Shown in pieces: positions 29,179-35,773 of a stretch of DNA of 64,000 nucleotides. The notes below the pieces were generated by a model that saw nothing but the letters and a program-made list of their open reading frames with translations, did not search any database and was not told the origin of the DNA. The stretch's first letter is position 1. Each line of letters opens with the position of its first letter. Origin of the DNA: a phage; the sequence record MZ956763.1; one strand, given 5' to 3'. The translations under genes were made by a program, and so were the position numbers.

Positions 29179-30594
29179 ATGAGCGAGTTATTTAAACATG
29201 CGCACCTTCATGCAGGTCGAACTGAAAATGGTGCTGTAAACCATACTTCATCAATGTCTGCTCTGGTAGACTTCTACAAAGCTGCTGGTTCAAGCCGTAG
29301 CAATGTAGAAATCTTACCAGACCTGTTCTACAAAGCTTTGCATGAGGATGTTGATGTTGCAGTTCGTATTTTACTGCATATGCGAGATGTACGAGAAGGT
29401 ATGGGTGAGCGTAAAGCCTTCAGGACTGTTTTGCTTCAAGCAATTGAAGATAAAGTTTTAGAGTCTACACAGGTTCTTCGCATTATGGATAAGATTGCAG
29501 AACTTGGTCGTTTTGATGACTTCAAAATCTTCGTAGGTACTCGCTTCGAGACAGATGCCTTCAAACATTTAGAAGCAGCATTACTAGACCCTGCAACAGC
29601 AGGTTTGGCAGCTAAGTGGTTGCCACGAGTCAAACCACGTCACAAACAGTTTGTAAAACGTTTCTGCAAGTTTGCCAACTTGAGTGAGAAAGAGTACCGC
29701 ACACTGTTGTCTGCACTATCTGATACAGTTGAGCAAAAAATCTCTGCTAATGAGTTTGGCAAGATTGACTACAGCAAGATTCCTTCACTTGCTGCTGCAC
29801 GTTACCAAAAACTGTTTAACCGTAAAGATGGAGAACGCTACAAAGCTTACATTGAGTCTTTATCAAAAGGTGAGACTAAGATTAACGCTGGTGCTGTTTA
29901 CCCATACGATGTGATTAAATCTGTCAAGCATGGTAATGCAGATGTTGCTAATGAGCAGTGGAAAGCACTACCAAACTGGATGGCAGAAGGTGAAAACATC
30001 TTGTGTATGACTGATGTTTCAAGCTCAATGTCTTGGGTGAATTTTGGCTCCATTACTGCTCTGGATATTGGTGTATCACTTGCATTGTATGTGGCAGAAC
30101 GCAATACAGGTTGCTTTAAGAATGAGTTGATGGTTTATTCAACAAACCCTCACTTCATCGAACTTAGTGGTGATTTACGAAACCGCCATCGTCAGGTGAT
30201 GCGACATGTTGAATATGGTTCAACTAACTTACAAGCAGCTTTTGACCGTATTCTTGAGACAGGTAAAAGAAACAACTTGACTCAGAAAGATATGCCAAGT
30301 AAGCTTATCATCTTCTCCGATATGGAGTTCAATCAGGTTGATGGAGCTAACGGTCGTACAAACTTTGAAGCAATTCAGAGTAAGTACAAGAAAGCTGGAT
30401 ACGAAATGCCACAACTGGTATTCTGGTACTTAGCAAACCGTAATGGTACTTGCGAAGTGTCTGTTAAGGATAACGGTGTAGCAATGGTATCTGGTTTCTC
30501 TCCAGCCACTTTAAAAGCTCTGCTTGGTGGTGAGAAGTTTGACCCAATCAGCGTAATGCTCAAAGCAGTAATGATTGACCGCTATATCTGGTAA
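29179..30594 (+). CDS. vWA-domain protein, candidate Ro60/TROVE-like (Rsr-like) RNA-binding protein
   Basis: 471 aa; MIDAS-like DxSxS (MTDVSSSMS) with downstream T and D (IIFSDMEF); ~270-aa helical N-terminal region; placed immediately upstream of tRNA/structured-RNA cluster. Confidence 0.5.
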   Translation: MSELFKHAHLHAGRTENGAVNHTSSMSALVDFYKAAGSSRSNVEILPDLFYKALHEDVDVAVRILLHMRDVREGMGERKAFRTVLLQAIEDKVLESTQVLRIMDKIAELGRFDDFKIFVGTRFETDAFKHLEAALLDPATAGLAAKWLPRVKPRHKQFVKRFCKFANLSEKEYRTLLSALSDTVEQKISANEFGKIDYSKIPSLAAARYQKLFNRKDGERYKAYIESLSKGETKINAGAVYPYDVIKSVKHGNADVANEQWKALPNWMAEGENILCMTDVSSSMSWVNFGSITALDIGVSLALYVAERNTGCFKNELMVYSTNPHFIELSGDLRNRHRQVMRHVEYGSTNLQAAFDRILETGKRNNLTQKDMPSKLIIFSDMEFNQVDGANGRTNFEAIQSKYKKAGYEMPQLVFWYLANRNGTCEVSVKDNGVAMVSGFSPATLKALLGGEKFDPISVMLKAVMIDRYIW

Positions 30595-30613
30595 AAAGTT
30601 TTAAAAAGGGTAT

Positions 30614-30642
30614 TGACAATGTGTTTGATACCCTTTAATATG
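30614..30642 (+). promoter_or_regulatory. sigma70-like promoter TTGACA-17-TAATAT upstream of tRNA cluster
   Basis: near-consensus hexamers with 17-nt spacer. Confidence 0.6.
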
Positions 30643-30759
30643 TTCTACATAGAAACGAAACGAGAGCTTTTCTAAGATACTGAAAAATATTTTAAAAAAG
30701 TTCTTGACAATCACTAAAAAATAATGTTAAAGTGGTTACATAGAGTTTGAAAAGTTTAT

Positions 30760-30836
30760 CTCTGTTTAGCTCAGCTTGGTAGAGCGTTCCGTTTGGGGCG
30801 GTAAGGCCGGAGGTTCAAGTCCTCCAACAGAGACCA
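30760..30836 (+). tRNA. tRNA-Pro (anticodon TGG)
   Basis: acceptor CTCTGTT/AACAGAG, T-arm GGAGG-TTCAAGT-CCTCC, anticodon loop TTTGGGG, CCA encoded. Confidence 0.8.
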
Positions 30837-30843
30837 AATTAAT

Positions 30844-30921
30844 GTTCCAGTAGACAAAATGGTAAAGTCACCACTCTTTCAAAGTGGATATCTGAGGGTT
30901 CAAATCCCTTCTGGAACGCCA
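30844..30921 (+). tRNA. tRNA-Glu (anticodon TTC)
   Basis: acceptor GTTCCAG/CTGGAAC, anticodon arm CCACT-CTTTCAA-AGTGG, T-loop TTCAAAT. Confidence 0.8.
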
Positions 30922-30926
30922 GTTTT

Positions 30927-31003
30927 GACAGAAGACCAATTACAGCAAACTTAATCTTATTCATCTGAAGGTAAATCGGACAAAGAAGAGATTTGGTCTG
31001 GTC
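30927..31003 (+). ncRNA. structured element A (conserved ACAGAAGACC...GGTCTGG terminal stem)
   Basis: 5' GACAGAAGACCAATTACAGCAA, 3' ATTTGGTCTGGTC; family members at 31095, 31576, 31663. Confidence 0.45.
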
Positions 31004-31013
31004 ATTAAGAATT

Positions 31014-31089
31014 GCGGGTATAGAGAAAGGGCGTCTCACATGTCTCATTAGCATGGTATCGGCAGGTTCGACTCCTGCACCCGCCTCCA
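31014..31089 (+). tRNA. tRNA-Met (anticodon CAT)
   Basis: D-stem GAGA/TCTC, anticodon arm CATGT-CTCATTA-GCATG, T-arm GCAGG-TTCGACT-CCTGC; acceptor pairing imperfect by eye. Confidence 0.65.
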
Positions 31090-31094
31090 AATTT

Positions 31095-31160
31095 ACAGAA
31101 GACCGTTTACAGCAATATTTATTAAATTTTTAGCGGAAAAATTGAAAGATACGGTCTGGT
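31095..31160 (+). ncRNA. structured element B (ACAGAAGACCG...CGGTCTGG stem)
   Basis: same terminal stem motif and TTACAGCAA box as element A. Confidence 0.45.
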
Positions 31161-31172
31161 AATACTAAACAT

Positions 31173-31249
31173 GGTTAGGAAGCACATAAGGTATGTGCGG
31201 TCGCCTGTTAAGCGAATGGCACAGGGTTCGAATCCCTGACTAACCGCCA
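31173..31249 (+). tRNA. tRNA-Asn (anticodon GTT)
   Basis: acceptor GGTTAGG/ACTAACC, D-stem GCAC/GTGC, loop CTGTTAA, T-arm CAGGG-TTCGAAT-CCCTG. Confidence 0.8.
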
Positions 31250-31318
31250 AATTTAGGAGAGAAGCGATTGCTCACCGATTTGTAAGGTGCAAGTCCTTAG
31301 CCTGAATAGAAATTAAAT

Positions 31319-31405
31319 GTGTCGTTATCCCGTAGATGGTAGCGGTGGGGACTGTAAATCCCTTGTCATTGAGACTCGGTAGGTTCGACTCCTACACGGC
31401 ACACC
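31319..31405 (+). tRNA. tRNA-Tyr (anticodon GTA), class II
   Basis: acceptor GTGTCGT/ACGGCAC, anticodon arm GGGGA-CTGTAAA-TCCCT, long variable arm, T-loop TTCGACT. Confidence 0.75.
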
Positions 31406-31411
31406 AATAAA

Positions 31412-31489
31412 GGCTATGTAGTTTAATAGGGTTAAAATACTCCCCTGTCACGGGAGATGATGTGAGTTCAAGTCTCATCGTAGCCGCCA
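31412..31489 (+). tRNA. tRNA-Asp (anticodon GTC)
   Basis: acceptor GGCTATG/CGTAGCC, anticodon arm CTCCC-CTGTCAC-GGGAG, T-loop TTCAAGT. Confidence 0.8.
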
Positions 31490-31575
31490 AATTATAATAA
31501 GTATTTCAAAATGATGTTTTGAGAGGGCTATTTAGCCCCTCCCTTAAAGAGTTCTTACGAGTATTCTTTAAAGGA

Positions 31576-31651
31576 GCAGAAGACCAAATACAGCAAGTTA
31601 CTTAAAATTTCAAGCCAATTTAATTTTGAAAAATTTAAAACTTGGTCTGGC
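31576..31651 (+). ncRNA. structured element C (GCAGAAGACCAAATACAGCAA...TTGGTCTGG)
   Basis: same terminal stem motif family. Confidence 0.45.
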
Positions 31652-31662
31652 TCAACAAATTT

Positions 31663-31794
31663 ACAGAAGACCGTTTACAGCAAAACTTAAACAATCTATT
31701 TCTCGGTAAAGAAAAGGAGAAGGTTCGATTCCTTCACTCGGCAGATGTCGAGTTGGTGTAATGGTAGCACTTAAGATGGTAAACAACGGTCTGG
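31663..31794 (+). ncRNA. structured element D with internal permuted tRNA-like domain (candidate YrlA-like Y RNA)
   Basis: terminal stem ACAGAAGACCGTTT/AAACAACGGTCTGG; internal order T-arm (GAAGG-TTCGATT-CCTTC), acceptor 3' strand ACTCGGC, loop AGAT, acceptor 5' strand GTCGAGT, D-arm GTGTAATGGTAGCAC. Confidence 0.5.
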
Positions 31795-31938
31795 TAATTA
31801 TCTTTGTAGATAAGTTATTAAGCTTACCTGTGAGTATGCGACCACAAAGGGTGAAAGGGTAAATTCTAGATTTAAACCCAAAAAGGCACATCGCTACAGA
31901 CCTTAAGCAAGTCTGGGTAGCTTATCTACAAAGATAAT
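31795..31938 (+). repeat. 19-bp perfect inverted repeat flanking a 106-nt segment
   Basis: AATTATCTTTGTAGATAAG at 31795-31813 and exact reverse complement CTTATCTACAAAGATAATT at 31920-31938. Confidence 0.85.
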
Positions 31939-31943
31939 TTAAT

Positions 31944-32019
31944 GGAAGTGTAGCAGAATGGTGATGCGGCAGACTTTTAATCTGACAGGCGATGGGTTCG
32001 AATCCCTCCACTTCTACCA
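31944..32019 (+). tRNA. tRNA-Lys (anticodon TTT)
   Basis: acceptor GGAAGTG/CACTTCT, anticodon arm GCAGA-CTTTTAA-TCTGA, T-loop TTCGAAT; T-stem weak by eye. Confidence 0.65.
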
Positions 32020-32023
32020 AAAT

Positions 32024-32100
32024 GGTTCAGTCGCAGATAAGGTAATGCAAGGGTTTCATAAGCCCTATGAATGTGGGTTCGATTCCCATCTGAACCTCCA
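32024..32100 (+). tRNA. tRNA with CAT anticodon (Met, fMet or Ile-lysidine)
   Basis: acceptor GGTTCAG/CTGAACC, anticodon arm AGGGT-TTCATAA-GCCCT, T-arm GTGGG-TTCGATT-CCCAT. Confidence 0.7.
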
Positions 32101-32102
32101 AT

Positions 32103-32177
32103 TGTGGGTTAGCATAAATGGTAATGCAAACGGCTGATAACCGTTAGAAGAGGGTTCGATACCCTCACCTACAACCA
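32103..32177 (+). tRNA. tRNA-Ile (anticodon GAT)
   Basis: acceptor TGTGGGT/ACCTACA, D-stem GCAT/ATGC, anticodon arm AACGG-CTGATAA-CCGTT, T-loop TTCGATA. Confidence 0.8.
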
Positions 32178-32192
32178 ATTTCAATAGAGTTG

Positions 32193-32221
32193 TTGACATT
32201 GAGATGTGACTACTTTATAGT
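32193..32221 (+). promoter_or_regulatory. sigma70-like promoter TTGACA-17-TATAGT inside tRNA cluster
   Basis: consensus -35, good -10; followed by ~290 nt without tRNA. Confidence 0.55.
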
Positions 32222-32514
32222 AACTAAAATACTTCACAATATGTATAATTCAAACACCAATACATGAGCGTTAGACGTAACACAATGTGGGGAAATTTGT
32301 TGTACATATTCTGAATAGTTTTCGTTGCGTAGCGTCTATTTTGCAAATTTAAAATAAATGCAAACGACAATGTTTTTCTGGCAGTAGCTTGATAGGCTAA
32401 ACACCAGTGAGGTCTTCCAATCCCTCATCAAAGAATTTGGCGTACTCGCCCACGGTATGATTAATAAGGTGGGCATCTTTAAGGGCTTTCTAAGAGAGTC
32501 TTTAAAGATAATTA

Positions 32515-32596
32515 CGGGGCGTATCTCAGCGGTCTTCTAAACCGCCGTTAACCGAGTAAGTGGAGTATGCGGGTTCGAGTCCTGCCGCCTCGACCA
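32515..32596 (+). tRNA. atypical tRNA-like gene, possible tRNA-Arg (anticodon TCT)
   Basis: acceptor CGGGGCG/CGCCTCG + A + CCA, T-arm GCGGG-TTCGAGT-CCTGC, arm GCGGT-CTTCTAA-ACCGC; no canonical D-arm found by eye, 23-nt segment before T-arm. Confidence 0.45.
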
Positions 32597-32738
32597 ATTT
32601 AGTTAGCAGATTACTTAGACGACCTAAGCGGGTCTTCCTGTAGGGAGGTGGTCTGTATCTCATGTTTTCCAGAACATGTAAATAATCTGAGAAGGGGCTT
32701 TACAGTGTTGAGATAATACGGTAAGCTTCGAATTATAG

Positions 32739-32822
32739 TGTGGGACGATGTTAAGACTCTAAGGCATGAGCAACGGCCTCCAAAACCGTTTCAAAGGGGT
32801 TCAACTCCTCCGTCCCATGCCA
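32739..32822 (+). tRNA. atypical tRNA, possible tRNA-Trp (anticodon CCA)
   Basis: acceptor GTGGGAC/GTCCCAT + G + CCA, anticodon arm ACGGC-CTCCAAA-ACCGT, T-loop TTCAACT; D-region ~8 nt longer than canonical. Confidence 0.5.
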
Positions 32823-32835
32823 AAGTCTTATTAGG

Positions 32836-32923
32836 GGTAGGTAGCGGCTAATGGCAGCCAAACAGTCTTGAAAACTGTTGCCACTGTAGAGATACGGTGA
32901 GGGTTCGACTCCTTTACTTACCG
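32836..32923 (+). tRNA. tRNA-Ser (anticodon TGA), class II
   Basis: acceptor GGTAGGT/ACTTACC, anticodon arm ACAGT-CTTGAAA-ACTGT, 20-nt variable arm, T-arm GAGGG-TTCGACT-CCTTT. Confidence 0.7.
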
Positions 32924-33180
32924 CCTAATAAGATTTAAAGCCAAGCTTCATTCGGATGTCGCTTTGGTATCCCGCGTGTATTGTCGTACACACTGATAAA
33001 ACACCTAGTAGGTGTCACGGAGAAGAGATAATATCAAGCTCTCCAAAGGTTCTAGTCACCGGATTAAACAAGACTATGCAAAGACCTTTTTAGGTCTTTT
33101 TAGAGGGCTTCTAAGGTTATTACAGCTTGTTGTGGAACCTTGTTGCTTAGGTTCTTAGAAGTTCTCTAAAAAGATTTAAT

Positions 33181-33258
33181 GGGAGATTGACGGTAATTGG
33201 TAAACCTACCATCCTTAGAAGTTGGTGTTTGAGGGTTCGAATCCCTTGTCTCCTACCA
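33181..33258 (+). tRNA. tRNA with TAG anticodon (Leu by anticodon) but short variable arm
   Basis: acceptor GGGAGAT/GTCTCCT + A + CCA, anticodon arm CCATC-CTTAGAA-GTTGG, T-arm GAGGG-TTCGAAT-CCCTT, variable ~5 nt. Confidence 0.55.
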
Positions 33259-33265
33259 AATTAAT

Positions 33266-33341
33266 GCAGGTGTAGCAAAATGGTTATGCGGCTGACTCTT
33301 AATCAGTAAGACGATGGGTTCAATTCCCTCCACCTGTACCA
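33266..33341 (+). tRNA. tRNA-Lys (anticodon CTT)
   Basis: paralog of 31944 tRNA; acceptor GCAGGTG/CACCTGT, anticodon arm GCTGA-CTCTTAA-TCAGT. Confidence 0.65.
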
Positions 33342-33347
33342 GACATT

Positions 33348-33423
33348 GGGGTCATAGTTTATATGGTTAAAATTCGAGTTTTGCAAACTTGGGAACTGAG
33401 TTCAATTCTCAGTGACTCCACCA
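33348..33423 (+). tRNA. tRNA-Ala (anticodon TGC)
   Basis: acceptor GGGGTCA/TGACTCC, anticodon arm CGAGT-TTTGCAA-ACTTG, T-arm CTGAG-TTCAATT-CTCAG. Confidence 0.8.
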
Positions 33424-33429
33424 ATTAGT

Positions 33430-33504
33430 GCATCCATAGTTTAAACGGGAAAATTACAGTCTTCCAAACTGAGGTTGAGGGTTCGATTCCCTCTGGATGC
33501 TCCA
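33430..33504 (+). tRNA. tRNA-Gly (anticodon TCC)
   Basis: acceptor GCATCCA/TGGATGC, anticodon loop CTTCCAA, T-arm GAGGG-TTCGATT-CCCTC. Confidence 0.8.
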
Positions 33505-33511
33505 AATTAAT

Positions 33512-33587
33512 GCTCCTATCGTATAATAGGCTATTACGGTTGCCTTGTAAGCAACTTATCAGGGTTCGAATCCTTGTGGGAGCACCA
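33512..33587 (+). tRNA. tRNA-Thr (anticodon TGT)
   Basis: acceptor GCTCCTA/TGGGAGC, anticodon arm GTTGC-CTTGTAA-GCAAC, T-loop TTCGAAT. Confidence 0.8.
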
Positions 33588-33590
33588 ATT

Positions 33591-33677
33591 CAGAGGTCAA
33601 GTGAAAGACCGCTGGTGTCAACTGAAGACCGTAACAAATTCCACGGAGTTGAGTTAGCGGCACAACTTCAGACCTCT
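33591..33677 (+). ncRNA. structured element E (CAGAGGTC...GACCTCT stem, internal AAGACCG boxes)
   Basis: inverted repeat AGAGGTC/GACCTCT enclosing ~70 nt containing two copies of the GAAGACCG box. Confidence 0.35.
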
Positions 33678-33681
33678 TTCA

Positions 33682-33757
33682 CACTCGCTTAGTTTATATG
33701 GTAAAACACCACCCTTACAAGATGAAGAAAAAGGTTCAAGTCCTTTAGTGAGTACCA
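33682..33757 (+). tRNA. tRNA-like gene, possibly tRNA-Val (TAC) or pseudogene
   Basis: acceptor ACTCGCT/AGTGAGT + A + CCA, D-stem GTTT/AAAC, T-arm AAAGG-TTCAAGT-CCTTT; anticodon-region CCACC-CTTACAA-GATGA does not pair. Confidence 0.4.
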
Positions 33758-33758
33758 T

Positions 33759-33836
33759 GTTCCAGTATCCCAATTGGCAGAGGATGCAAGCTCAAACCTT
33801 GTATTAGTGACGGTTCGAATCCGTCTTGGAACACCA
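33759..33836 (+). tRNA. tRNA with CAA anticodon (Leu by anticodon) but short variable arm
   Basis: acceptor GTTCCAG/TTGGAAC + A + CCA, anticodon arm GCAAG-CTCAAAC-CTTGT, T-arm GACGG-TTCGAAT-CCGTC, variable 6 nt. Confidence 0.6.
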
Positions 33837-33855
33837 ATTTTAAGAGGCTATTTAG

Positions 33856-34413
33856 ATGAGATATTTGAAGTATGCTTCATGGATTTTCCTAGCTTTACTA
33901 GAGCCATTTGCAGCAACCCTATCAGTCATCTTAGCACCTTTCGTAGTTCCATTCTACAGTGAGAAGAAAGGACACCTACCTTTTGGATTCAGATGGATGG
34001 AGACCTATGACAACCCAATTGATGGTGATGAAGGTCACGTTAAAAGATGGGCTAAGATTAGAAAGATTGGTAAGCTGGGTGTCTACATGCAGAGAGTTGG
34101 ATGGCTCTGGAGAAACAAAGCTTATAACTTCTCTTACCATGTATTAGGAAGAGATGTAAAAGATGTTACTAAGTGGAAAGGTAATATCAACGTAAGTTCT
34201 GACCCTGAAGATAATCAGACAGGTTATCTCCTAATGTGGAACAACAATGCTTGGGGATTATTCGCTTTTATTCCGTCAATTAAAATCTTTGGTAAACAGT
34301 TTTACTGGAGAATTTATGTTGGATGGAAACTAAAAAGTGTTGTCCCAGAAGAAAGAGCATTCTCAAGGGAAAGAGTTATGTTGGCATTCTTTATTCATCC
34401 ACTGAGAAAGTAA
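33856..34413 (+). CDS. hypothetical membrane-associated protein encoded inside tRNA cluster
   Basis: ORF 185 aa, hydrophobic N-terminus (WIFLALLEPFAATLSVILAPFVVPF), Trp/Lys-rich. Confidence 0.45.
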   Translation: MRYLKYASWIFLALLEPFAATLSVILAPFVVPFYSEKKGHLPFGFRWMETYDNPIDGDEGHVKRWAKIRKIGKLGVYMQRVGWLWRNKAYNFSYHVLGRDVKDVTKWKGNINVSSDPEDNQTGYLLMWNNNAWGLFAFIPSIKIFGKQFYWRIYVGWKLKSVVPEERAFSRERVMLAFFIHPLRK

Positions 34414-34421
34414 AGATTTAA

Positions 34422-34497
34422 AGGGGATTAGTTTACAAGGTTAAAACCTCGGTCTTTGAAATCGAAGAAGTTGGTTCAATTCCAACATCCCCAGCCA
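34422..34497 (+). tRNA. tRNA-Gln (anticodon TTG)
   Basis: D-stem GTTT/AAAC, anticodon arm TCGGT-CTTTGAA-ATCGA, T-arm GTTGG-TTCAATT-CCAAC, 3' ATCCCCA-G-CCA. Confidence 0.7.
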
Positions 34498-34499
34498 AT

Positions 34500-34579
34500 G
34501 CTCCATTACTCCAATTGGCAGAGAGGCCAGACTTAAAATCTGTGTTATGTATCGGTTCGAATCCGATATGGAGTACCAA
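34500..34579 (+). tRNA. tRNA with TAA anticodon (Leu by anticodon) but short variable arm
   Basis: acceptor GCTCCAT/ATGGAGT + A + CCA, anticodon arm CCAGA-CTTAAAA-TCTGT, T-arm ATCGG-TTCGAAT-CCGAT. Confidence 0.6.
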
Positions 34580-34584
34580 TTTTA

Positions 34585-34660
34585 GCGGTATAGCATAATT
34601 GGCAATGCAACAGTCTCTGAAGCTGTCCTATTAAGGTTCAAATCCTTATACCGCTGCCAC
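34585..34660 (+). tRNA. tRNA-Gln (anticodon CTG)
   Basis: acceptor AGCGGTA/TACCGCT, D-stem GCAT/ATGC, anticodon arm ACAGT-CTCTGAA-GCTGT, T-arm TAAGG-TTCAAAT-CCTTA. Confidence 0.7.
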
Positions 34661-34691
34661 TTCTAAGGGTTCTTACGAGAGTCCTTAAATG

Positions 34692-34767
34692 TGGCCTTAT
34701 CATAAATGGTAATGACCCATGCTGTGAACATGGTCTATACGGGTTCAAATCCCGTAGGTCACCCCAA
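34692..34767 (+). tRNA. tRNA-His (anticodon GTG)
   Basis: acceptor GTGGCCT/AGGTCAC, D-stem TCAT/ATGA, anticodon arm CCATG-CTGTGAA-CATGG, T-arm ACGGG-TTCAAAT-CCCGT. Confidence 0.8.
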
Positions 34768-34772
34768 TTTAT

Positions 34773-34849
34773 AGTCCAAGTAGCTTATATGGTTAAAGCG
34801 CGTGTCTGAAAAACATGAGAAGAGGGTTCAAATCCCACTGGACTACCAA
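34773..34849 (+). tRNA. tRNA-Phe (anticodon GAA)
   Basis: acceptor TAGTCCA/TGGACTA, anticodon arm CGTGT-CTGAAAA-ACATG, T-loop TTCAAAT; 3' CCA not fully encoded. Confidence 0.7.
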
Positions 34850-34864
34850 TTTCAAAGGTGCTTA

Positions 34865-35599
34865 ATGAAAGAGATGACAGAACAAGGTAAGGAGATTTTT
34901 AATCTCTTAAAAACCGGTAAAGGGTTTTCTAACCCACTTATTACTGGTGCAGCAGTTCTCGGTGGAACCGTAGCTGCCTCTACATCACTTGTAAGCTCTA
35001 TTAGCTCTGTAACAGACCCTACAATGAATGAGAAACTTGTTGCTGCTGGACTTACAACAGTCCTTCTAAACAGCTTTACAACAAGCCTGACAAGCACTAC
35101 AGCAACTACTAAGACCCTAACAGACTATGGTCAAAAGTCTATTGATGAGTTTTCATCACGTATGCAGGTAGCAAAGGGATACTCCAATGTTATGGGTGCA
35201 GCAGGAGAACAAGTTGGTTGTACACCGTTCAGTGGTATTATGGGTGTTGCTACAGAATATGGTCAAAAAGCTATTGATACGATTAACAGTACACTAGAGA
35301 GTGTTAACGATGTATTAAGTGACTTACAAGACGCTATTGACAAGGGTCTTGATACTGTTTCTGATTTAGCTAACCAAGCTGTCAGTAAGATTAATGAAGG
35401 TATCTCAAAGATTACAGCTTATGCAGATGAAGTTGTGCAGATGATTGAAGAAGAAGCTGCCCTTATTGCAGAGTACCTTAAAACGAATATCAATGGGTTC
35501 TTAGCAGGTATCTTACCAGACTGGTTTGATGATGCTTGTAAAACTGGTGTGATTGACACTATTGCAACACCAGAAATGAAGAACGCATTACAGAAATAA
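34865..35599 (+). CDS. hypothetical Ser/Thr/Ala-rich protein (between tRNA-Phe and tRNA-Ser)
   Basis: start moved to ATG 34865 (MKEMTEQG..) because ORF-track start lies inside tRNA-Phe; 244 aa. Confidence 0.5.
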   Translation: MKEMTEQGKEIFNLLKTGKGFSNPLITGAAVLGGTVAASTSLVSSISSVTDPTMNEKLVAAGLTTVLLNSFTTSLTSTTATTKTLTDYGQKSIDEFSSRMQVAKGYSNVMGAAGEQVGCTPFSGIMGVATEYGQKAIDTINSTLESVNDVLSDLQDAIDKGLDTVSDLANQAVSKINEGISKITAYADEVVQMIEEEAALIAEYLKTNINGFLAGILPDWFDDACKTGVIDTIATPEMKNALQK

Positions 35600-35600
35600 T

Positions 35601-35693
35601 GGAAGATTAACCCTAAAAGGTAAGGGAGCAGTTTGCTAAACTGCCAGTAGCTGAGAAATCGGTGTACCAGTTCAAGTCTGGTATCTTCCTCCA
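35601..35693 (+). tRNA. tRNA-Ser (anticodon GCT), class II
   Basis: acceptor GGAAGAT/ATCTTCC + T + CCA, anticodon arm GCAGT-TTGCTAA-ACTGC, 21-nt variable arm, T-arm ACCAG-TTCAAGT-CTGGT. Confidence 0.8.
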
Positions 35694-35697
35694 ATTT

Positions 35698-35773
35698 GAA
35701 TCCGTGACAGAAATGGCTATGTGCCTGTCTGCAAAACAGGTTTATAAGGGTTCGAGTCCCTTCGGATTCTCCA
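35698..35773 (+). tRNA. tRNA-Cys (anticodon GCA)
   Basis: acceptor GAATCCG/CGGATTC + T + CCA, anticodon arm CCTGT-CTGCAAA-ACAGG, T-arm AAGGG-TTCGAGT-CCCTT. Confidence 0.8.

Follow-up and report, generated by a model that had tools for sequence, protein, structure and literature searches.

The locus

Four repeated elements, E1 to E4, lie among the tRNA genes of a Felix O1-like phage, downstream of a gene for a protein with a predicted Ro60 fold, and belong to a phage RNA family that is very widespread and has not been described before. The window, by which is meant the whole stretch of DNA analysed, comprises 64,000 nucleotides of record MZ956763.1; the region shares 95-97.5% identity with members of the Felix O1-like group (Ounavirinae), and 96.7% with Felix O1 itself. 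The protein gene ends 330 nt before E1 and is followed by the tRNA cluster in which the elements are embedded (Table 1). E1 and E2 are 3-9 nt away from the flanking tRNA genes, while spacers of 0-7 nt separate E3, E4 and the next structured RNA. The motif that defines the elements is absent from the window's other tRNA spacers. Downstream of the promoter-like sites at 30.6-30.7 kb no terminator match was found on the + strand before 32193; with promoters ahead of tRNA-Pro and no terminator until that point, E1-E4 would share a transcript with nine tRNAs.

Table 1. Features of the tRNA region of the window, with the paired segments of each element
Feature	Position	Strand	Structure or sequence	Basis
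DUF2828 + DUF7788 gene, 471 aa (presumed protein partner)	29179-30594	+		Pfam
Two sigma-70-like promoter matches before tRNA-Pro	30613-30641, 30704-30733	+		Consensus matches only
tRNA cluster, 24 genes	30760-35773	+
E1, short Y-RNA-like element	30926-31004	+	Outer stem UGAC (30926-29)/GUCA (31001-04); bulge AGA / G31000; inner stem AGACCAA (30933-39)/UUGGUCU (30993-99); box UUACAGCAA 30940-48; interior AU-rich, variable	Repeat match, RNAfold, orthologue alignment, outer-stem counts
E2, short element	31093-31162	+	Outer stem UUAC/GUAA; bulge AGA / G31158; inner stem AGACCGU (31100-06)/ACGGUCU (31151-57); box UUACAGCAA 31107-15
E3, short element	31574-31653	+	Outer stem GAGC/GCUC; bulge AGA / G31649; inner stem AGACCAA (31581-87)/UUGGUCU (31642-48); box AUACAGCAA 31588-96
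E4 ('element D'), longer copy	31661-31797	+	Handle UUAC-AGA-AGACCGUU ... AACGGUCU-G-GUAA; box UACAGCAA 31676-83; interior a permuted tRNA-like module with T-arm GAAGGUUCGAUUCCUUC, D-arm-like GGUGUAAUGGUAGCAC and closed 7-bp acceptor-like stem ACUCGGC-AGAU-GUCGAGU	Repeat match, fold z -2.7
Possible minimal fifth copy (tentative)	31897-31915	+	Hairpin CAGAC-CUUAAGCAA-GUCUG
Strong promoter-like site	32193-32221	+	TTGACA-17-TATAGT

Four copies with a common fold

The sequence CAGAAGACC-NNN-TACAGCAA is present in four exact copies in the window, each closed by GGTCTGG. The pattern CAGAAGACCNNNTACAGCAA matches exactly at 30929, 31096, 31577 and 31664, on the + strand in each case; 0.23 matches are expected from 100 shuffles, in none of which the count rose to four. 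The 5' box of each copy is answered downstream by (A/U)(C/U)GGUCUGG, and RNAfold assigns a single architecture to all four: a 4-bp outer stem, a 5' AGA bulge opposite a single G, an inner stem of 7-8 bp (AGACCRW/WYGGUCU), followed by a (U/A)UACAGCAA box that is unpaired. The outer stems of the paralogues (UGAC/GUCA, UUAC/GUAA, GAGC/GCUC) vary in sequence and keep their complementarity. An initial annotation, made from the DNA letters of the window, had recognised three of these elements, with boundaries that agree with E1-E3 within 1-2 nt and lengthen once the outer stem is added. Its description of a shared terminal stem and box holds and extends to a fourth exact copy, its element D, and the AT-rich interiors of E1-E3 are, as it said, different, being unrelated to each other. 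Where it had them inserted between tRNA genes, the position between tRNAs is right, but nothing points to insertion of mobile DNA.

E4 differs from its shorter paralogues in its interior, where a T-loop (GGUUCGAUUCC), a 7-bp acceptor-like stem and a D-arm-like hairpin make up a tRNA-like module of the kind that characterizes YrlA; E1-E3 have no such module. A scan of the window's elements with Rfam 15 gave no match at E<=1, E4 and the tRNA model included. No terminator-like site (GC-rich hairpin plus U-tract, + strand) overlaps E1-E4, the 3' flanks of the copies being GGUCAUUAAG, GGUAAUACUA and GGCUCAACAA.

The stem of the tentative fifth copy covaries (AAACC/GGUUU in Moogle- and Susp-viruses), and its box is without the C. 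It is contained in a long-stem RNA directly after E4 (31795-31943, +; -48.3 kcal/mol, z -7.2), the closing stem of which covaries in related phages from CUUUGUAG/CUACAAAG to CUUUGCAG/CUGCAAAG. Just before E3 (31523-31573, +) there are two conserved hairpins, and the second of them (CCUUAAAGAG...UUCUUUAAAGG) shows the compensatory change AGAG/UUCU to AGGG/UCCU among Felixounaviruses.

A Ro60-like protein encoded upstream

The 471-aa protein falls in PHROG 850, 'RNA-binding protein', and has the DxSxS motif of the metal ion-dependent adhesion site (MIDAS), in the form DVSSSMS. Sequence searches barely detect Ro60, the single-sequence search against PDB returning nothing relevant, and a comparison of folds was therefore needed. 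An AlphaFold2 model built from 32 homologues (predicted local distance difference test 84, predicted template modelling score 0.84) has the two parts of the Ro60 family, a helical-repeat ring and a C-terminal von Willebrand factor A (vWA) domain with MIDAS. The best nine PDB matches of the model in Foldseek are all Ro60/Rsr (E 4e-8 to 3e-6), from Thermus phage phiLo Ro60, D. radiodurans Rsr and Xenopus Ro60; they run the full length, over about 493-549 aligned columns with template modelling scores of 0.46-0.64 and 11-16% identity, and are followed by isolated vWA domains only. Because the top structural matches are to Ro60 alone, the gene product is predicted to have the Ro60 fold, as a divergent full-length ring of helical repeats with a vWA domain.

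About 710 of 50,697 phage records (about 1.4%) encode the protein; among its carriers are Felix O1, Listeria P100-like, Campylobacter, KVP40-like and cluster-L mycobacteriophages. Homologues in mycobacteriophages are already annotated as 'Ro-like RNA binding protein', and the sampled matches there are genomes of 69-77 kb (Lclasvirinae where taxonomy was read). The papers found on 'DUF2828' were unrelated ones on plants or tardigrades.

The gp130 protein of phage Bas63, described as Ro60-like, counters the Ppl defence system (PhageMaP preprint, 10.1101/2024.10.10.617714). Its orthology to the protein of the window is based on the description in that preprint, of a Ro60-like gene in a Felixounavirus, with the tRNAs directly after it. 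No RNA was identified there; the authors only guessed that some annotated tRNAs might be Y RNAs, whereas the candidates considered here are non-tRNA spacers.

Conservation and covariation in close relatives

Spacers between the tRNAs were taken by synteny from 15 Ounavirinae. The ends of the elements and the box are near-invariant across these phages, whereas the interiors are replaced: those of E1 and E2 come in two or three mutually unrelated versions and show insertions and deletions that are not multiples of three. It follows that E1 and E2 are not coding, despite the open reading frames (ORFs) in public records. In many such records E1-E4 and the tRNAs are covered by small hypothetical ORFs, which often run on the opposite strand, and in Felix O1 (AF320576; locus L090 of our set) ORF91 and ORF94 overlie the RNAs; these frames are most likely artefacts.

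The stems change in pairs. The outer stem of E2 switches from UUAC/GUAA to UUGC/GCAA in five of the 15 phages, E3 has wobble variants, and the acceptor-like stem of E4 occurs in three versions, each fully compensated. In 17 genomes the outer stem is paired at four of four positions in every true copy, with 6-7 different sequences among them, compared with about one of four for a control in which the partner was slid. Yersinia phage P778, the protein of which is 53% identical, has three copies with the same box and with other helices (GGACUGU/ACAGUCC, GGAUUC/GAAUCC and GGACUC/GAGUCC). Compensatory changes of the stem, which the initial annotation proposed to seek by alignment across related phages, are thus present both within the clade and beyond it.

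The motif and its gene across phages

For a wide sample, 80 viral contigs encoding homologues of 39-99% identity were fetched, and 83 viral loci were examined. The pairing test presupposed no pairing: all U[AUG]CAGCAA boxes were taken, together with the 7-mer ending one base before each box, and the complement of the 7-mer was sought 15-200 nt downstream. A perfect 7-bp partner exists for 108 of 210 boxes on the strand of the gene and for one of 77 on the opposite strand; the matched controls gave eight (7-mer reversed) and seven (7-mer taken 12 nt upstream). There are 49 distinct helices, the stem sequences differ completely between loci, and four of the seven helix pairs show at least four Watson-Crick types. 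Two further regularities, neither imposed by the scan, are a G directly after the 3' strand in 43 of the 49 helices and a G-C second pair in 42.

Elements are present at 64 of the 83 viral loci in one to five copies each, 82 lying downstream and 27 upstream of the gene, and at least 13 of the sampled loci that bear the motif have no tRNA gene. In bacterial and archaeal assemblies, whether genomes or metagenome-assembled genomes, elements occur at 52 of 80 loci, with 97 perfect matches compared with nine on the opposite strand. The reciprocal sample consisted of 120 IMG/VR matches chosen by sequence only: three have the helix, two of these three have the gene on the same strand, and the remaining 117 have neither helix nor gene. 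The motif also adjoins homologues of 26-38% identity in six phages of different genera: Mycobacterium phage Kingsolomon (three copies, the middle one a clear YrlA-type tRNA mimic), Listeria phage LMTA-34 (three copies), Campylobacter phage NCTC12673 (two copies), Bacillus phage Nate (three copies, among tRNAs), Enterococcus phage iF6 (three copies) and Sinorhizobium phage phiN3 (three or four copies). What is conserved across very distant phages is a covarying, strand-specific RNA motif of helix plus box, genomically tied to a protein of the Ro60 fold; the finding is more general than is apparent from the window alone.

In LMTA-34 (locus L213, 2351-7019) the Ro-like gene, preceded by the three handle RNAs, is adjacent to a gene for 'ribosome associated inhibitor A', and 1.3 kb separate it from one for an RtcB-type 'tRNA splicing ligase', a gene order that echoes the Salmonella rsr-yrlBA-rtcBA operon.

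About 20 members of the family, E4 included, have tRNA-like T-loop modules. In one IMG/VR contig (3300026097_000074, locus L073, 3734-3833) the handle AGGUUAG ... CUAACCU-G, with box UUCAGCAA, encloses an unpermuted tRNA-Thr-like sequence that scores 52.9 bits as a tRNA, and the cargo can thus be a whole tRNA-like unit. A subgroup with the 3' flank GGUGGAU (L017 5409-5469, L034 5398-5455, L049 5424-5480) repeats AAGCAA/UAGCAA twice more after CAGCAA, which hints that AGCAA is the recognised unit.

The gathering-score Rfam scan of 15 diverse loci found tRNA and tmRNA only. A covariance model (R1) made from 46 mini-constructs with their interiors deleted gave true copies 11-16 bits, no better than noise; it was abandoned because it could not bridge variable interiors of 20-150 nt, and the purpose-written scan with matched controls was used instead. 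The alignment of mini-constructs (A3) shows 100% pairing and double changes in seven of seven pairs, its rows having been preselected for pairing; it was for this reason not used as a test, the box-first scan being the non-circular one. RNAalifold predicted no structure on the MAFFT alignment A2, because the 3' strands are off register by one column in many rows.

Comparison with known Y RNAs

Ro60-Y RNA particles are a classic and still poorly understood RNA-surveillance machine, in which Y RNAs tether PNPase and gate the Ro cavity. To our knowledge, bacterial particles of this kind are known only for canonical TROVE proteins. In their search for YrlA-type RNAs, Chen et al. (2014; PMC4201824), who defined the motif GNCGAAN0-1G, found such RNAs only near TROVE-annotated proteins, and TROVE-annotated genomes were the only ones searched. 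The Yrl1 and Yrl2 candidates of phage phiLo were likewise chosen by a CGAA motif within a 5'-3' stem-bulge-stem (PMC12135203). No searchable paper describes the RNAs of the present family.

The likenesses to YrlA and YrlB of Salmonella and Mycobacterium (Chen et al. 2013, 2014; PMC4201824) are several. Small RNAs are grouped on the same strand within a few kb of a Ro60-type gene; E1-E4 lie 0.3-1.2 kb downstream of theirs, well inside the 4 kb from a Ro60 orthologue that is customary for Y RNAs, albeit with a protein that is not Pfam-TROVE. A bulged stem, formed by the 5' and 3' parts, encloses a large loop or module, as judged from fold predictions and covariation. E4, like YrlA, has a permuted module (T-arm, closed acceptor-like stem, D-arm), and it is accompanied by shorter paralogues without one; YrlA and YrlB are co-transcribed and processed from a precursor, as E1-E4 would be. 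The differences are that conservation resides in a (U/A)WCAGCAA box apical to the helix and in a 3' G, instead of the 5'-proximal GNCGAAN0-1G, and that the partner is a DUF2828/DUF7788 protein instead of a Pfam-TROVE Ro60. E1-E3 are also set apart from YrlB, as that RNA is described, by short helices and large AU-rich interiors.

With Thermus phage phiLo (PMC12135203) the window shares a phage-encoded Ro60-type protein, phiLo having two adjacent candidate Y-like RNAs, and the crystallised phiLo Ro60 (PDB 9l5y) is the best structural match of the window's protein; unlike phiLo, the present family has no CGAA motif, and the protein families differ at the sequence level. Metazoan Y RNAs and Ro60 (Xenopus 1yvp/1yvr/2i91) offer a similar size of about 70-135 nt, several paralogues per genome, a bulged helix at the ends that presumably serves as protein handle, and a variable loop module. 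The present RNAs differ from them in having no GGUCCGA/UUGACU helix, in their location in a tRNA operon and in their phage host.

Interpretation and alternatives

We consider it fairly likely that E1-E4 are Y-RNA-like partner RNAs of the divergent Ro-like protein, that is, small non-coding RNAs that share a protein-binding handle, and RNAs with this handle probably form a Y-RNA-type ribonucleoprotein with it. The initial annotation had likewise suggested a family of small structured RNAs, as YrlB-like partners of element D; covariation, the link to a Ro60-fold gene and the module of E4 fit such a family, accompanying element D much as YrlB does YrlA, but the RNAs are not YrlB in sequence or shape, and what they conserve is not the canonical Ro-binding motif.

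We infer the transcription, processing, binding and biological role of E1-E4 as follows. The elements would be part of the tRNA operon transcript, started at the promoters at about 30.6-30.7 kb, and would be excised mainly by the enzymes that process the adjoining tRNAs, a route suggested by the few nucleotides between E1 or E2 and the flanking tRNAs. The handle would consist of the 7-8-bp helix that closes the 5' and 3' parts of the RNA, with (U/A)(A/U)CAGCAA single-stranded on the apical side, an A-rich bulge or flank 5' of the helix and a G directly 3' of it. Its binding partner would be the Ro60-like ring protein whose gene lies immediately upstream, and the resulting complex would be a phage counterpart of the Ro60-Y RNA particle. 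The variable interiors may then be interchangeable cargo or tether modules, AU-rich loops in E1-E3 and a permuted tRNA mimic in E4, which by analogy with Y RNAs could act as tethers, gates or decoys that direct or regulate the action of the protein on RNA during infection.

Several results weigh against this interpretation. The canonical Ro-binding motif (GGUCCGA, GNCGAAN0-1G or CGAA) is not conserved in the 5' stem strand of the family: in the clade of the window, (G/U)(A/U/G)C-AGAAG only resembles it, and the distant members have A-rich 5' flanks without CGAA, their conserved block being WCAGCAA. As the motif was looked for and not found, we classify the family as a new variation on the Ro60-Y RNA theme, outside YrlA/YrlB. 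The protein falls short of Pfam TROVE, and a profile search against PDB finds Ro60 at E=1 only and in the vWA part only. The fold z-scores of E1-E3 are modest (-0.7 to -2.0). The strict scan yields no element at 19 of the 83 viral loci, at 28 of the 80 genome loci and in one Staphylococcus phage. Finally, gp130 alone, borne on a plasmid or in T7 without these RNAs, counters Ppl (10.1101/2024.10.10.617714), so that the RNAs are not required for that phenotype.

The independence of gp130 is also in keeping with the best of the alternatives, in which the elements are not free small RNAs and instead serve as cis-acting signals in a polycistronic transcript, either determinants of stability or processing or operators for the Ro-like protein or another factor. 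Many loci have a single copy 25-60 nt after the stop codon of the Ro-like gene or just before its start, as in an untranslated region, and E3, E4 and the next structured RNA abut. On the other hand, position is not fixed, copies being found upstream, downstream or several tRNAs away and numbering up to five; several copies have a tRNA-like module, or even an entire tRNA-like sequence, inside them, which is hard to reconcile with an operator; and E1 and E2 are so tightly bracketed by tRNAs that tRNA processing would free them. We regard a cis-acting role as unlikely.

That all copies in the window belong to a single tRNA transcription unit could suggest a reiterated punctuation of the operon (an RNase E/RNase III site or a terminator, for example) that has nothing to do with the upstream gene; the initial annotation had raised a processing or termination signal as its second option. 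Such a signal is not supported, given that the motif stands beside the Ro-like gene at the tRNA-free loci and that no copy is followed by a U-tract terminator on the + strand. The tRNA spacers of the window that are without the motif, and the reciprocal sampling, in which the motif tracks the gene, also speak against punctuation, which we regard as very improbable.

A feature of the DNA itself, whether promoter -35-like boxes, a protein site such as the homing-endonuclease target mentioned in the initial annotation, or a miniature mobile element, is hardly credible: TTGACA/TTTACA begins E1, E2 and E4 (a perfect TTGACA at the start of E1), one weak promoter-like match (9/12) covers E2, and some relatives have HNH endonuclease genes inserted in the region, but promoter-like matches in the region number four against 5.4 in shuffles, the -35-like 5' end is absent in the wider family, and the complete turnover of helix sequences between genomes with pairing kept, together with the strand bias of the pairing test, is the signature of an RNA, as opposed to a DNA site or a mobile element whose termini are conserved.

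If E1-E4 are indeed partner RNAs of the Ro-like protein, they supply concrete RNA candidates for a much more divergent protein than the canonical ones, in about 700 of 50,697 sequenced phages, and one whose Felixounavirus orthologue has an anti-defence phenotype against Ppl. They would also show that tRNA-mimic modules are carried by a second type of Ro handle, independent of the first. The signature of helix, WCAGCAA box and 3' G can be used to annotate hundreds of blank or mis-annotated spacers. A broader proposition, on which our judgement is evenly divided, is that these phages harbour an unnoticed pan-phage class of ribonucleoprotein, in which a divergent Ro-like ring protein (DUF2828/DUF7788), spread over phages of Proteobacteria, Firmicutes, Actinobacteria and Campylobacterota, would be joined by modular 'CAGCAA-handle' RNAs; the handle would dock to the protein, the interiors (AU-rich loops, permuted tRNA mimics and even complete tRNA-like sequences) would serve as tethers or decoys when phage and host defence clash at the RNA level, and the recognition code would be unlike that of all known Y RNAs.

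Other features of the tRNA region

Two more tRNA-free spacers within the tRNA cluster (31250-31318 and 32200-32510, +) have no assigned feature, and weak, sub-threshold matches to tmRNA and permuted tmRNA extend over 32120-32513. The cluster also has a tRNA-Arg(UCU)-like sequence (32512-32596, +) with a 7-bp acceptor stem, an anticodon arm and a T-arm; the normal D-arm is missing and the variable region is long. It is not called by ARAGORN and has a weak tmRNA-like score of 22 bits in Rfam. In SUSP1 and KPS64, a tRNA-Arg(TCT) is annotated farther along the same tRNA array.
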